Positions 1 to 20,988 of a stretch of 20,988 nucleotides of DNA are shown here, piece by piece. Both the position numbers and the translations under genes were made by a program. The stretch is from a virus. Lineage: Duplodnaviria; Heunggongvirae; Uroviricota; Caudoviricetes. Numbering within the stretch: position 1 is the first letter of the stretch; every line of letters begins with the position of its first letter. A model generated the notes under the pieces. It ran no database searches. It saw nothing but the letters and a program-made list of their open reading frames with translations, and was not told the origin of the DNA. The stretch lies in IMG/VR virus record IMGVR_UViG_2778261588_000006, positions 1 through 20,988 of that record. One strand, written 5' to 3'.

Positions 1-1248
1 ATGGCACTGAATATTCCATTCAGAAATGCGTACTATCGTTTTGCATCCAGTTACTCATTTCTCTTTTTTATTTCCTGGTCGCTGTGGTGGTCGTTATACG
101 CTATTTGGCTGAAAGGACATCTAGGGTTGACAGGGACGGAATTAGGTACACTTTATTCGGTCAACCAGTTTACCAGCATTCTATTTATGATGTTCTACGG
201 CATCGTTCAGGATAAACTCGGTCTGAAGAAACCGCTCATCTGGTGTATGAGTTTCATCCTGGTCTTGACCGGACCGTTTATGATTTACGTTTATGAACCG
301 TTACTGCAAAGCAATTTTTCTGTAGGTCTAATTCCGGGGGCGCTATTTTTTGGCTTGGGGTATCTGGCGGGATGCGGTTTGCTTGATAGCTTCACCGAAA
401 AAATGGCGCGAAATTTTCATTTCGAATATGGAACAGCGCGCGCCTGGGGATCTTTTGGCTATGCTATTGGCGCGTTCTTTGCCGGCATATTTTTTAGTAT
501 CAGTCCCCATATCAACTTCTGGTTGGTCTCGCTATTTGGCGCTGTATTTATGATGATCAACATGCGTTTTAAAGATAAGGATCACCAGTGCGTAGCGGCA
601 GATGCGGGAGGGGTAAAAAAAGAGGATTTTATCGCAGTTTTCAAGGATCGAAACTTCTGGGTTTTCGTCATATTTATTGTGGGGACGTGGTCTTTCTATA
701 ACATTTTTGATCAACAACTTTTTCCTGTCTTTTATGCAGGTTTATTCGAATCACACGATGTAGGAACGCGCCTGTATGGTTATCTCAACTCATTCCAGGT
801 GGTACTCGAAGCGCTGTGCATGGCGATTATTCCTTTCTTTGTGAATCGGGTAGGGCCAAAAAATGCATTACTTATCGGAGTTGTGATTATGGCGTTGCGT
901 ATCCTTTCCTGCGCGCTGTTCGTTAACCCCTGGATTATTTCATTAGTGAAGTTGTTACATGCCATTGAGGTTCCACTTTGTGTCATATCCGTCTTCAAAT
1001 ACAGCGTGGCAAACTTTGATAAGCGCCTGTCGTCGACGATCTTTCTGATTGGTTTTCAAATTGCCAGTTCGCTTGGGATTGTGCTGCTTTCAACGCCGAC
1101 TGGGATACTCTTTGACCACGCAGGCTACCAGACAGTTTTCTTCGCAATTTCGGGTATTGTCTGCCTGATGTTGCTATTTGGCATTTTCTTCTTGAGTAAA
1201 AAACGCGAGCAAATAGTTATGGAAACGCCTGTACCTTCAGCAATATAG
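1..1248 (+). CDS. cscB: MFS oligosaccharide:H+ symporter of the LacY family (sucrose permease-like), host gene
   Basis: 415-aa ORF starting at window base 1; 12-TM-like hydrophobic profile; LacY-family motifs (DKLGLKK, NFHFEYGTARAWG, FDQQLF, GPKNALL, FKY). Recognised from memory as CscB-like, not searched. Confidence 0.8.
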   Translation: MALNIPFRNAYYRFASSYSFLFFISWSLWWSLYAIWLKGHLGLTGTELGTLYSVNQFTSILFMMFYGIVQDKLGLKKPLIWCMSFILVLTGPFMIYVYEPLLQSNFSVGLIPGALFFGLGYLAGCGLLDSFTEKMARNFHFEYGTARAWGSFGYAIGAFFAGIFFSISPHINFWLVSLFGAVFMMINMRFKDKDHQCVAADAGGVKKEDFIAVFKDRNFWVFVIFIVGTWSFYNIFDQQLFPVFYAGLFESHDVGTRLYGYLNSFQVVLEALCMAIIPFFVNRVGPKNALLIGVVIMALRILSCALFVNPWIISLVKLLHAIEVPLCVISVFKYSVANFDKRLSSTIFLIGFQIASSLGIVLLSTPTGILFDHAGYQTVFFAISGIVCLMLLFGIFFLSKKREQIVMETPVPSAI

Positions 1249-1257
1249 ACGTAAACT

Positions 1258-1301
1258 TTTTCCGGTTGTTGTCGATAGCTCTATATCCCTCAACCGGAAA
1301 A
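1258..1301. other. 11-bp perfect inverted repeat (TTTTCCGGTTG / CAACCGGAAAA) with 22-nt loop, immediately 3' of the permease
   Basis: Read directly from sequence; possible terminator or protein-binding dyad, loop too long for a canonical intrinsic terminator. Confidence 0.35.
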
Positions 1302-1689
1302 TAATAATAGTAAAATGCTTAGCCCTGCTAATAATCGCCTAATCCAAACGCCTCATTCATGTTCTGGTACAGTCGCTCAAATGTACTTCAGATGCGCGGT
1401 TCGCTGATTTCCAGGACATTGTCGTCATTCAGTGACCTGTCCCGTGTATCACGGTCCTGCGAATTCATCAAGGAATGCATTGCGGAGTGAAGTATCGAGT
1501 CACGCCATATTTCGCTATCAGGATTCTGTGTGATGGTTACATCGCCCGGCTCAGGGCTGTTTAGTCATCAGCGCTTTCTGACAGTGCTGAGATTTCAACC
1601 TGTTGCAGTAAAAATGAGTAGATATAAGGCAAGTGTGCTGCCAAACCCATCTTTTACGGGGTGAAGGTAGATTTCGTTTGAAGGGTATC

Positions 1690-1704
1690 TGGTGTCCCCT
1701 GCAG
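1690..1704 (-). other. Putative prophage att core: partial tRNA-Arg 3' end (CTGCAGGGGACACCA on minus strand)
   Basis: Minus-strand 15-mer matches the acceptor-stem 3' half plus CCA of an argW-type tRNA-Arg as I recall it; no T-arm or remainder of the tRNA is present, as expected for the duplicated core at a prophage junction. Lies between the host permease and the excisionase. Confidence 0.5.
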
Positions 1705-1777
1705 ACATCTACTTGAAGCGGCAGGGGATTGATTGGAATGGTGTTTTTTAGGTGTGAGAAATATTTTACCCGCTATT

Positions 1778-1978
1778 TTACCCATTGGCGCGGCTTAAGA
1801 GCTTATTTTTGAATTCACAATGGTCACGATATAACCATCTTGCGCGTCCGTGGATAACTTTGGCTTTTGGCAGGTCGCCGGACTTAATCCGGTCATAGAT
1901 GAAGGTTTTACCGAAGCCAGTATCGGCCATGATGAATTTCAAATCAACCAGGGAATCAGGCTGTAGTTCGTGTTGCAT
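1778..1978 (-). CDS. torI: Excisionase / AlpA-family DNA-binding protein (TorI-like recombination directionality factor)
   Basis: 66-aa ORF with AlpA/Xis-like winged-helix pattern (TGFGKTFIYDRIKSGDLPKAKVI...GRARWLYRD); sits next to the att core; matches my recollection of KplE1 TorI in size and sequence, unverified. Confidence 0.6.
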   Translation of the reverse strand: MQHELQPDSLVDLKFIMADTGFGKTFIYDRIKSGDLPKAKVIHGRARWLYRDHCEFKNKLLSRANG

Positions 1979-2035
1979 GAGTGCTATCTCCGAATAGGGA
2001 ATCGAACCTGCAAATCAGGCAATAAAAAACCGCCA

Positions 2036-2203
2036 TCAGGCGTTTTTGTGTTCTTTCAGTTCTTCAATTCGAATATTGGTTACGTCTGCATGTGCTATCT
2101 GCGCCCATATCATCCAGTGGTTATAGCAGTCGTTGATGTCCTCTGCTTCGATAACTCTGTTGAATGGCTCTCCATTCCATTCACCTGTGACTCGGAAGTG
2201 CAT
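2036..2203 (-). CDS. Small hypothetical protein (55 aa)
   Basis: ATG preceded by GGAG SD at 7-nt spacing; co-oriented with neighbouring early-left genes; no recognisable domain. Confidence 0.35.
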   Translation of the reverse strand: MHFRVTGEWNGEPFNRVIEAEDINDCYNHWMIWAQIAHADVTNIRIEELKEHKNA

Positions 2204-2274
2204 TTATCATCTCCATAAAACAAAACTCGCCGTAGCGAGTTCAGATAAAAGAAATCCCCGCGAGTGCGAGGATG

Positions 2275-2559
2275 TTATTCATTGCCGATATTCACCTTTA
2301 TCGCGAACACCTTTACCGGTTTATCACCGAAGTGCGGATGTGTGATTGTCTTGATTTCATAGCCGCCATACGGAACGTCAATTCTGCGGCTGGAATCGTC
2401 ACGCTTCGGATATCCCTTTGTGATAATCAGGCGGTCATACTCCCGGAACATAATTCGCTTATTCCAATAGTCATTACACAGGCGATACTCTTCCGTTTTC
2501 TCTCCTCGAATCATGGCATCGAAGTATTCACCTTTGACGGCAAGTTGTAGGTTAGCCAC
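2275..2559 (-). CDS. Hypothetical phage protein (94 aa), possibly ASCH/PUA-like
   Basis: GTG start with AGGAGG SD 6 nt upstream; 8-nt overlap with upstream gene end; domain guess is weak. Confidence 0.5.
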   Translation of the reverse strand: MANLQLAVKGEYFDAMIRGEKTEEYRLCNDYWNKRIMFREYDRLIITKGYPKRDDSSRRIDVPYGGYEIKTITHPHFGDKPVKVFAIKVNIGNE

Positions 2560-2839
2560 GACCTTCCTCCTTTGGCTTGTGAATTTGTATCGTCATGCCG
2601 CTTTGAGTGGTGACTACAATGACAGAACCAGGCTGAAGGCTGTTAAGATTGAATGCTTCGTAAAACGAATCCAAGGCCAGCGCTTTTTTATTCTTTCGGT
2701 TCCACCAACGCCATCCCTTGCTACAGGCTACACTGACAATCCACTGTCCACTCCTGTAAGCCATATAAAACCAGATGAGCAAAACCTGAAGGAAGGCTAT
2801 CCAGTCAATAATCGTATATTTCGCGAAGGAGTCCATCAC
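2552..2839 (-). CDS. Hypothetical protein with N-terminal transmembrane helix (95 aa)
   Basis: ATG with AGGAGGTGA SD; hydrophobic segment IIDWIAFLQVLLIWFYMAY; 4-nt overlap with upstream gene. Confidence 0.5.
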   Translation of the reverse strand: MMDSFAKYTIIDWIAFLQVLLIWFYMAYRSGQWIVSVACSKGWRWWNRKNKKALALDSFYEAFNLNSLQPGSVIVVTTQSGMTIQIHKPKEEGRG

Positions 2840-3747
2840 TTCACCTCCTGCGGCGGTTCTGGTAGCGGCATCCAGTGTGTGACATTGCTAATCAGACCAT
2901 ATTCATTAGTTTGAGGATGGTTGCCGTTATCGTCTCCGTATTTAAGACTCTCCATAAAGCCATAATGCCTATCACCATTAACGCTCACAAAGCCGTAATA
3001 AGCAGGTATAACGCCGATCTCACACGTAACCAGTAAAGGAAAACTAGTTCTCCAATTTAGCTCGCCGATTACAGGCATTCGCTCACTACAGCTTATCCAG
3101 CCATCCGGAGTTACCGGATAGTTGCCCGATAGCGCATTACGCAATCGCTCCAGCTTCACGTATTCCTGAACCCTGTTTCCGTCGCATGCCTGAAGCCATT
3201 GCGCAGCCTTTTGCGCATCAGTGTGAAAGGCACAAGTGCGACCGTCATCAAATTGCATTTCGTAGAGGTCAGCAACTTGTTCAAACTGCGTATGTTGTGA
3301 CTTGTAAGTTTGGCTTACAGGTTCGGCACCATGAAGCATGGCGTCGCTCCGCTCTATGCCATCCAGCGCGATTCGCAGTGCCTGAATTGTGGTAGAGCTA
3401 TCGTTTGGGGCTATTCCATATCTCTCGAATACAGCTAAATGGTTGCGCATAATCTCAGGCGTAAGCTCTTTGTAAGCATAAGCAAGAGGCTCTGATGCAT
3501 TATCCGGCACAACCGACGCAGGCGCGGCAGCATAAACAGGAATAACGTCCGCTTGCTCTTTATTGCTTTCATCCGTTAAAGCCCAGAATAATTTCCCGGC
3601 CGGATGTTTGAAAATATAAGCAACTGGATCTGCTTCCAGCGATGCCAGCGCAATTCGTGCCAGTTCCATTTGTTCGCCACGGGTAAGCCCGTTTTCAAGC
3701 GTGGATTTAATGAACAATTCGATACGTTCTTTAGTGATAGCGCTCAT
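2836..3747 (-). CDS. DUF551-domain phage protein
   Basis: C-terminal WISCSERMP...THWMPLPEPP block typical of DUF551; start placed at MSAITK (3747) with AGGAG SD rather than the upstream in-frame ATG at 3789. Confidence 0.6.
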   Translation of the reverse strand: MSAITKERIELFIKSTLENGLTRGEQMELARIALASLEADPVAYIFKHPAGKLFWALTDESNKEQADVIPVYAAAPASVVPDNASEPLAYAYKELTPEIMRNHLAVFERYGIAPNDSSTTIQALRIALDGIERSDAMLHGAEPVSQTYKSQHTQFEQVADLYEMQFDDGRTCAFHTDAQKAAQWLQACDGNRVQEYVKLERLRNALSGNYPVTPDGWISCSERMPVIGELNWRTSFPLLVTCEIGVIPAYYGFVSVNGDRHYGFMESLKYGDDNGNHPQTNEYGLISNVTHWMPLPEPPQEVK

Positions 3748-5239: not shown

Positions 5240-5746
5240 TTAAATTGCGTGAATAGCGTGACGAGGGAAGGGGAGAGTTACTGGTGCAAAGGGTATATCG
5301 TCGTAAAAATCCATCGGAGGTTCGTTGTGTTGTGCAGGTGATGATTGCTGCTGTGGCTTCTGTGATTGCCTGCTGGCTGCTTGTTGTTTGCTGTCGCCAA
5401 TTCCGCCAAGCATTTGCATCACGCCATTAATTCCGACATGAACCTCGGTTGTGTAACGGTCTTGCCCTGACTGGTCTTTCCACTTTCTGGTTCTCAGCAT
5501 TCCCTCGAAATAAATCTGATCACCTTTTTTCACATACTGCCCCACAACCTCAGCCAGTTTCCCGGATACAGCAACACGATGCCATTCAGTCAATTCCTTT
5601 TGCTCGCCAGTATTTTTATCTCGCCATTGTTCTGACGTGGCTATTGTCAGGTTAGCGAACGCTGTACCTGATGGTGAGTATCGAACTTCCGGGTCTTGTC
5701 CTACCCGACCAAGGATAATCACCTTATTTATCCCGCGAGAACTCAT
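5240..5746 (-). CDS. ssb: Single-stranded DNA-binding protein (SSB) with C-terminal extension
   Basis: OB-fold SSB signature ([20 protein letters not shown]...TEWHRV), Gln/Pro-rich linker and acidic MDFYDDIPF tip; start at MSSRG (5746), overlapping the HNH stop as ATGA. Confidence 0.85.
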
Positions 5747-6210
5747 TTGCTCCACCTCTTGCCAGTTTTTATGTTGCTTATAATTGATTGAGATACACCC
5801 ATGTCTTTTGCTATCTTGTACTGACTCTCTTTTTCAGAGAGTCTTTTCCTAATTTCTATAACCTGCCACTCTGTTAATTTTGCACCATGATGAGCATGAC
5901 CTTTCTTGGCTCCACGATGCCTTCCTTTTGCTATCTTGTCGTCCATGTTTTCTTGCGCGCTACCTAAAAAGAGATGTTCAGGATTAACGCAGCATGGGTT
6001 ATCGCATTTGTGGCAAACCATCTTCCCAGATGGAATGGGGGAGTGATAAAGCTCAAAAGCAACCCGATGAGAAAGCATTGTTACGCCAAAGGCTACAAAT
6101 TTTGTGTATCCTCCTTTGTTTTTTGAATAGGTAGACTCCCAGCAACCTGTTGTTTCATTAACTTTGTAGCTGGACTCGAATCTTTTAATAATTCCGTCCA
6201 AGTGAGACAT
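5743..6210 (-). CDS. HNH endonuclease (HNH_3-type, homing-endonuclease-like) with C-terminal HTH
   Basis: [18 protein letters not shown] motif, His/Lys-rich segment, C-terminal helix-turn-helix-like tail. Confidence 0.8.
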
Positions 6211-6918
6211 TTATGCCGCCTGTTTTAGTTCGTTAACTCTGATGTTCATTACCTGAACGCATTTAGCCTGCGCCTCCTCGTTGCCAGCCATTAATTGCCA
6301 GTCACGCTGATAACGCTCGATGAGTTTTTTCTTGTCAGTTTCTGTTGATGCATAATCGCTGAAGTCTTTCAGGATTTGCTCGCAGTCAACCGATGGAGAT
6401 TTCTGGTTGGTATTTTCTGGTGATGGTTTGTTATCTGATGCTGGGATTGCCCAGCCTGGCAGCGATGGAGGGAGCCAGTAAAATCCTGTTCCATCCTTGA
6501 GTTTTGCCCTGTGCCATCCCTGCTTTTTGTCGAGAGATGTTTGTGCGAAACCTTCCTCAAGGTTATACAGATACCGACCGATTCCCCACTGAACGGCAGC
6601 GCGCTTCATTGCACCTGAACGACCACCTTTGACGGCTTCTACCTGCGTGTTTTCAGCAGCATCCCATTTGGTTACCCATTCGGAATCAATCTTTATTGAT
6701 ATGCCGCATTCAACGCCGCCGTTGTTGGGAATGTCGCGGTATTCATTGCGCCATCCTGCTTTGCCACAAACATCGTCCAGGCGTTTCATGATTGCCCGGT
6801 TCGTGACATAAGCCAGCACCATAGCCCACACCTTGCCATCGCGTGTTTTACCGCTTTGCTGTATTCGCCATTCGATATCTTCAGGGCTGAATGGCTCATC
6901 GAATTTGTTCAAATCCAT
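6211..6918 (-). CDS. Rad52-like single-strand annealing protein (Sak-type recombinase)
   Basis: Motifs AIMKRLDDVCGKAGW and KRAAVQWGIGRYLY resemble the Rad52/Sak SSAP fold; paired with ssb as in phage recombination modules. Confidence 0.7.
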   Translation of the reverse strand: MDLNKFDEPFSPEDIEWRIQQSGKTRDGKVWAMVLAYVTNRAIMKRLDDVCGKAGWRNEYRDIPNNGGVECGISIKIDSEWVTKWDAAENTQVEAVKGGRSGAMKRAAVQWGIGRYLYNLEEGFAQTSLDKKQGWHRAKLKDGTGFYWLPPSLPGWAIPASDNKPSPENTNQKSPSVDCEQILKDFSDYASTETDKKKLIERYQRDWQLMAGNEEAQAKCVQVMNIRVNELKQAA

Positions 6919-20808: not shown

Positions 20809-20988
20809 GTGAGCCGCGTAATCAATTTGGGTAAGGAGAAGAAATTCCCAATTACTCAAGAGCTATACGAGCGGCTGGAAAGCGTCATCCATGATTACGA
20901 TGGCGAAATCAGTTTATGCGAGGCGATTGGCACACTCGAATTGCTGAAGCAGTCACTGATTGAAGGCGCGAAAGAGTCATCAACCTGA
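20809..20988 (+). CDS. Hypothetical small protein (59 aa, GTG start), ends at last base of window
   Basis: GTG 1 nt after the upstream TGA with GGAG 6 nt upstream; under the track length cutoff. Confidence 0.3.
   Translation: MSRVINLGKEKKFPITQELYERLESVIHDYDGEISLCEAIGTLELLKQSLIEGAKESST

Follow-up and report, generated by a model that had tools for sequence, protein, structure and literature searches.

The window analyzed here, by which we mean the whole 20,988-nt stretch of DNA, opens with a bacterial permease gene and continues as phage, and the question raised by this locus is how the two came to be joined. We conclude that positions 1690–1704 are almost certainly an attR core, that is, the junction at the torI end of a lambdoid, P22-like (Lederbergvirus-type) prophage that occupies the 3′ end of argW. 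This is a known kind of object, an argW IntS/TorI module equivalent to the pawZ-torI end in K-12, and by itself the attR finding has annotation value only: it fixes the left boundary of the prophage at window base 1704/1705 and shows that the 15 nt are no gene but a tRNA fragment of the pawZ kind. Because the module is among the best-characterized non-lambda recombination modules, the junction advances no open question. Three neighboring elements (a box at 1721–1728, a 6-7-6 core dyad, and a box upstream of torI) are mildly new and incremental, and could refine the published model of the intasome and its regulation if confirmed.

A Displaced argW End Beside torI

The 15-mer TGGTGTCCCCTGCAG occupies positions 1690–1704 of the plus strand and occurs once in the window even when two mismatches are allowed (0.03 occurrences expected). 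A sequence-only reading of this DNA had described a 15-nt minus-strand match to the 3′ end of an argW-type tRNA-Arg, and alignment agrees at 15 of 15 positions: the 15-mer is the exact reverse complement of nt 61–75 of the argW tRNA-Arg(CCU) gene (blastn-short, E = 0.001), which comprise the last T-stem bases, the 3′ acceptor strand, the discriminator, and CCA. The argW reference was taken from the closest annotated genome, that of E. coli A2 (L001), where ARAGORN calls a tRNA-Arg with anticodon CCT. The same program finds no tRNA in the window, and the parts of argW present there are nt 61–75 and a separate box resembling nt 46–61. Read on the minus strand as CTGCAGGGGACACCA, the displaced argW end is the equivalent of the K-12 pseudogene pawZ, a 15-nt pseudogene beside torI whose coordinates coincide with argW nt 61–75; the exact object of the present finding is therefore already annotated in the reference genome.

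The duplicated core of KplE1 has been published as CTGCAGGGGACACCAT (PMC2951348). Here the argW 3′ end, CTGCAGGGGACACCA(T), is matched at all 15 positions and the 16th base is not common to this host. At the position 3′ of CCA host and phage carry different bases, which shortens the repeat from the published 16 nt to 15, a trivial deviation that is harmless to the assignment.

On the host side of the core lies cscB (1–1248, plus strand), a sucrose/oligosaccharide MFS permease (NCBIfam TIGR00882, E = 1.4e-178) that is annotated as cscB or as an oligosaccharide MFS transporter in matching genomes. On the phage side, the ORF at 1778–1978 (minus strand) is torI, encoding a recombination directionality factor (RDF, or excisionase) identical at 66 of 66 residues to K-12 TorI and to the "Tor inhibition protein" of PDB 1Z4H, an NMR structure. 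The gene is annotated as torI in relatives, lies directly inside attR, and is transcribed toward the core. Scans of this and the neighboring small ORFs against Pfam and NCBIfam profiles returned no match for TorI, so its identification rests on identity to the characterized protein. Beyond torI follow small ea-type ORFs (ASCH and DUF4752 in relatives; DUF551 and Ead/Ea22). The earlier reading had placed the 15-mer between a host permease and a TorI-type excisionase and had seen no room for an integrase ORF in 1249–1777, and both statements hold: every ORF in that interval is 44 aa or shorter, and 1249–1689 is host DNA. The lambda-type arrangement, with the integrase beside the excisionase at the junction, is not found here.

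The KplE1 Module and Its Relatives

The attL/attR/intS/torI module of KplE1 is conserved in HK620, Sf6, CUS-3, and other prophages (PMC2951348). In Kapi1, Sf6, HK620, and KplE1 attP lies between int and xis (Kapi1 preprint), which places int and xis at opposite ends of the prophage once the phage has integrated. All free phages that we examined have the order int, attP, xis/torI, and in the HK620 record the attP core is annotated between int and hkaC/torI. The proposal that the present locus belongs to a KplE1-like module of this kind is supported by the identity of TorI, by a P arm 97–100% identical to those of K-12, HK620, Sf6, and HF4s, and by an exact match to a published attR primer.

KplE1 (CPS-53) of K-12 shares with the window the argW target, the core, an identical TorI, and a near-identical P arm that includes both arm-type boxes and the GCAGGGGA box described below. 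It differs in being a 10.2-kb remnant without an immunity region, whereas the window holds at least 19 kb with lambdoid early, immunity, and lysis genes; in its host flank, which is dsdC in K-12 and cscB here; and in its 16-nt rather than 15-nt repeat. HF4s is 100% identical over 1690–2260, and HK620, Sf6, and Kapi1 are about 98% identical over the core, P arm, and torI. The att sequence and the opposite-ends outcome given in the Kapi1 preprint are as found here. Unlike these four, in which the site is the attP of a free phage, the window holds an integrated attR, and the rest of it is a different mosaic in which only 2016–2260 and scattered segments are common to other lambdoids. With lambda the module shares the logic of a heterobivalent tyrosine integrase, namely core and arm-type sites, an RDF, and IHF. 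In lambda, however, int and xis are neighbors on the same side of attP and remain linked after integration, whereas here attP separates them; the TorI sites of this module are on attL, not attR; and intS has its own promoter, which overlaps attL.

The junction almost certainly formed as follows. The attP, which bears a copy of the last 15–16 nt of argW, sits between intS and torI, and IntS-mediated exchange within the identity rebuilds an intact argW at the intS end (attL), so that the original 15 nt, now displaced, come to lie at the torI end (attR) together with the DNA originally downstream of argW and cscB. Judging from published work on KplE1 and HK620, for which excision assays exist (PMC2951348, PMC3509656), excision would depend on IntS, on IHF acting at attR, and on TorI occupying GTTCG-type sites of attL, and IntS would form a bridge between the core and the arm-type sites (1762–1783). 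TorI sites have been defined by GTTCG, GATCG, and GTCCG; the repeated GTTCG/GTCCG/GATCG elements seen in relatives are the int-side TorI sites and are absent from the window.

The Far End of the Prophage

The cscB-attR-torI junction is present in 117 complete genomes. E. coli A2 is 98.5% identical over window positions 1–3000, and there the series cscB, 15-mer, torI opens a P22-like prophage of about 37 kb whose far end carries a tailspike gene, intS, an intact tRNA-Arg, and yfdC. Aligning both junctions of this relative, which had been put forward as the way to define the core, shows that attL and attR have exactly 15 nt in common and nothing on either side. ISHS7 has the same pattern (torI ... 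intS, tRNA-Arg, yfdC), and in K-12 the order argW, intS ... torI, pawZ, dsdC likewise puts intS and argW opposite the torI end. An InsQ/TnpB RNA-guided endonuclease gene was also observed in the early-left region of the argW prophage of A2 (L001, 10194–11285).

No complete genome contains this exact mosaic prophage, the best covering 62% of the window, so the presence and intactness of its intS/argW end are inferred from relatives. On that basis we predict that about 20 kb (18–22 kb) past base 20988 lie a tailspike gene (possibly with gtr), intS, GATAAATGGTGTCCCCTGCAGGAATCGAACC and its continuation, an intact tRNA-Arg(CCU), and yfdC. It is improbable that the junction, while a genuine attR, belongs to a decayed or stranded prophage whose far end lacks intS, the attL core, or the intact tRNA and whose module is nonfunctional. 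That reading draws on the location of the far end outside the window, on the lack of a complete genome with this exact prophage, and on the decay of related prophages: CPS-53 of K-12 is a 10-kb remnant, and in ISHS7 the neighborhood of intS holds an IS3 element and a truncated tailspike gene. Yet both of these decayed elements retain intS and argW, the 19 kb of prophage within the window carry intact-looking early, immunity, and recombination ORFs, and the free, viable phage HF4s carries an identical torI and P arm.

The Host Flank and the Unoccupied Site

The DNA at 1249–1689 forms the host arm of attR and has no annotated genes in matching genomes; its ORFs are 44 aa or shorter. A hypothetical attB was reconstructed by joining window positions 1000–1704 to the rest of argW and yfdC, and was found as a single, 100%-identical piece of 1339 bp in many complete E. 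coli genomes and at 80% coverage or more in 1411 genomes. The empty site is annotated cscB, tRNA-Arg, yfdC, with 441 bp between cscB and argW. This contiguity means that 1249–1689 is the DNA that normally follows argW directly at its 3′ side in unoccupied csc+ strains and that the phage begins at 1705. Comparison with an uninterrupted locus, to which the earlier reading had also pointed, thus reveals a precise insertion into an unoccupied attB with contiguous host flanks. That the 15-mer is a chance match and no prophage junction, a notion for which only the shortness of the match speaks, can be dismissed, since host DNA gives way to phage DNA exactly at the 15-mer, and genomes with the unoccupied site are known.

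The presence of csc in place of dsdCX beside the argW hotspot has already been described in the literature. We observed in addition that the host sequence departs from that of K-12 immediately after the CCA of the tRNA (window 1689/1690 leftward, compared with L002, 13600–13720). The csc segment abuts the very end of the argW copy, which fits an arrival of csc itself at the argW hotspot.

The P Arm

Positions 1705–1801 align with the attR of K-12 and with the attPs of HK620 and HF4s, and thus belong to the P arm. At 1782–1801 (minus strand) the window matches primer attR-IHF2 at 20 of 20 positions. This primer bounds, on the phage side, the attR fragment that undergoes recombination in vitro (PMC3509656), and its name implies that attR has IHF sites.

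A tandem pair of IntS arm-type-like sites lies at 1762–1783 on the minus strand (GGGTAAAA; TATTTTACCC twice on the plus strand), and the last of them overlaps the stop codon of torI. The arm-type motif, which contains TAAA (PMC2951348), is matched three times in the window, where 0.37 matches would be expected. The boxes keep fixed offsets of −81 and −69 from the core across nine attPs with RDFs 39–100% identical to TorI, and further copies occur on the int side at +129, +140, +152, and +167. In Emek, g341c, and phiEt88 all arm-type boxes switch together to GGGCATAA, along with a divergent integrase. Fixed offsets and a joint switch are the behavior expected of arm-type sites, and these boxes probably serve as such.

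A match to the IHF consensus with one mismatch (CAGGGGATTGATT against YAANNNNTTGATW) is located at 1722–1734 on the plus strand, overlapping the P-arm box at 1721–1728. One-mismatch matches are not enriched in the window (19 observed against 27.6 expected), and an IHF site at 1722–1734 is a possibility only. As an explanation of the P-arm box itself the IHF consensus is insufficient, because its ATCAA part varies while CCCCTGC is constant in divergent attPs; IHF binding next to the box is still conceivable.

Two further observations concern the arms of the attachment site. In the P′ arm, every attP examined shows a further conserved box, A(T/A)CCCC(T), whose position is fixed at +49/+50 nt from the core and hence outside the window. 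It lies between two blocks of TorI sites, has the orientation of the P-arm box, and reads AATCCCCTG in HK620 and HF4s; it was seen in L003 (HF4s), L004 (HK620), L005–L007, and L090–L092. Separately, a 43-codon ORF at 1654–1785 (minus strand) begins in the region of the torI stop codon, crosses the P arm and the core, and ends in host DNA. Its position corresponds to that of HK620 hkaB and Sf6 gene 17, which span attP, and it is probably no real gene because here it would be a hybrid of phage and host sequence.

A Candidate Core-Type Dyad

The overlap segment in which strands are exchanged must lie inside the 15-nt identity between attP and attB. Within the region 1691–1709 we identify a candidate IntS core-type dyad made up of the left arm GGTGTC, the segment CCCTGCA, and the right arm GACATC, in which 1697–1703 would be the 7-bp overlap. 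Strand exchange would accordingly be expected in CCCTGCA, between the inverted half-sites GGTGTC and GACATC.

The two arms are symmetric at five of six positions in the window and at six of six in Ehr49 and g341c. Over 31 distinct sequences, 86% of cells are complementary in this 6-7-6 register, against 17–61% in slid controls. One pair has undergone a double change from T:A to C:G, present in four sequences, and the covariation score is reached by one of 500 shuffles. Where the fourth position of the right half-site is G instead of A (L160–L164 and L165/L170/L172), the mirrored position is mostly C instead of T. The left flank of the dyad, in the xis sense, is conserved though it falls outside the tRNA identity. 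This candidate has the classical arrangement of a tyrosine-recombinase site and, as far as sequence comparison can tell, appears to fit the catalytic core dyad better than does the 8-bp inverted copy considered next.

A Conserved Inverted Box in the P Arm

Bases 1695–1702 of the core (TCCCCTGC) recur in inverted orientation at 1721–1728 (GCAGGGGA), forming an 8-bp inverted repeat that is 100% complementary, with 18 nt between the arms. Among 15-mers of the window, only 1.3% have a perfect 8-bp inverted copy of part of their own sequence within 60 nt. In Erwinia and Klebsiella phages with 75–80% DNA identity the core-proximal spacer diverges while GCAGGGG(A/G)TTG is kept, and the box persists in attPs down to 39% RDF identity, including those of Emek, g341c, and phiEt88. 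The spacer between box and core is 18 nt in most attPs and 24 nt in Emek and g341c. A perfect inverted copy of at least 7 bp is present in 38 of 46 distinct core-proximal sequences, which were gathered by a viral-contig scan ranked on a divergent RDF; a viral-contig scan with a TorI alignment had returned only loci with 100%-identical TorI, which were of no use for assessing conservation, and a protein-mode search of phage records also supplied divergent loci.

Pairing between box and core was counted over 31 distinct sequences after six spacer bases had been removed from the clade with the 24-nt spacer, in which MAFFT had misaligned the box. Complementary cells made up 92.7% of the total, against 40–61% in slid controls. 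In the clade L160–L164 the core reads GCAGGGAACGCCA and the box (G)TTCCCTGC or ATCCCTGC, a C:G to T:A double change. This double change concerns one pair and two cells only; the covariation is 0.090 against 0.076, a value reached by 11 of 500 shuffles. We conclude that the inverted box is real and under constraint, but that the covariation, which is thin, probably reflects one event.

In a clade of IMG/VR contigs (L165/L170/L172, at about 950–975) the core reads GCAGGGGACGCCA, the inverted box is absent, and a direct repeat, TTAGACG twice, abuts the core. The lack of the box in this clade indicates that P-arm architecture is not uniform in the family.

The sequence-only reading had suggested that the inverted copy might be a recombinase-binding dyad. 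The copy itself stands as real and conserved; its role as a catalytic, core-type dyad probably does not, given the 18–24-nt spacing. In such a dyad two protomers of the IntS catalytic domain would sit in inverted orientation on TCCCCTGC and GCAGGGGA. The rarity of such copies by chance (the 1.3% given above), the conservation of the box in divergent attPs despite a diverged spacer, and the way in which it tracks the core change in the GGGAAC clade are all in keeping with this arrangement. Core sites of tyrosine recombinases of the lambda Int type typically have 6–8 bp between their arms. The arms here are 18 nt apart, or 24 in the Emek/g341c clade, and one of them coincides with the putative overlap instead of flanking it. 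Moreover, a classical 6-7-6 dyad with matched changes of its own is available at 1691–1709, L165/L170/L172 keep the core and that dyad without having the box, and the covariation comes from two cells and probably one event. We consider a core dyad formed by 1695–1702 and 1721–1728 unlikely.

A second explanation places the function of the repeat in RNA. In a torI-sense transcript, UCCCCUGC, 18 intervening nucleotides, and GCAGGGGA, followed by CACCA, could fold into a hairpin resembling an acceptor-stem minihelix, which might mark, stabilize, or process the 3′ end of the torI mRNA, or might uncouple torI from intS expression in attP. The hairpin appears in both the predicted MFE and centroid structures, the pairing survives a C:G to U:A change, several variants would form U:G in this strand, and the box resembles a tRNA 5′ acceptor strand (TCCCCT, compared with TCCTCT in argW). 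The fold, however, has a z-score of only −1.79 and is equaled by 6 of 200 shuffles, the hairpin has neither a T-run nor a terminator call, and several natural variants carry plain mismatches, so that we regard a functional hairpin as quite unlikely. An intrinsic terminator, also considered for the inverted repeat, was rejected: no terminator is called and a T-run is absent.

What the conserved box might do instead can be put forward only tentatively. It may be an undescribed functional partner of the core, an inverted copy of the strand-exchange segment that co-evolves with the acceptor-stem sequence of the tRNA, acting either as an accessory DNA site for IntS or as a minihelix (ending in ACCA) in a torI read-through transcript; we hold this to be doubtful as a whole. 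The box may also be covered already by published footprints.

A T-Arm-Like Box Upstream of torI

About 20 nt upstream of the torI start codon, at 1998–2013 on the minus strand, lies a T-arm-like box, TTGCAGGTTCGATTCC, that equals argW nt 46–61 at 16 of 16 positions (E = 2.7e-4) and contains the TorI-site pentamer GTTCG. On the tRNA this segment abuts the region of the 15-mer; in the window the two are separated by the P arm and torI. Divergent RDF genes also have the conserved sequence (A/G)GTTCGATTCCC in their upstream regions, and in Erwinia phage Midgardsormr38 it is present in tandem. The torI promoter has been called non-characterized in the literature, and the HK620 record carries a putative cII-dependent integration promoter upstream of torI.

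A reasonable reading of the conserved GGTTCGATTCCC box upstream of torI is that it may be a TorI operator; if so, it would let the RDF regulate its own promoter. A different origin, in which the argW 46–61 match would be left over from a once longer att identity that torI interrupted when it inserted, is disfavored, because the GGTTCGATTCCC box is found again ahead of divergent RDF genes whatever their context, in some cases in tandem, a pattern more typical of a binding site.

Other Features of the Window

The box at 1998–2013 also stands at a mosaic boundary near position 2016. To the right of it, over about 2016–2260, the sequence is 95–97% common with lambda, P22, HK140, and many Stx phages; the recombination module to its left is not common to those lambdoids. 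The Sf6 record marks a "boundary sequence" at this same mosaic boundary. Two terminator-like hairpins follow on the minus strand, at 2273–2254 and 2242–2223. Deeper in the prophage, the recombination region contains a free-standing HNH endonuclease ORF (PF13392; 5743–6210, minus strand), whose neighbors are an SSB gene (5240–5755) and a Rad52/Rad22-type recombinase gene (6211–6918).
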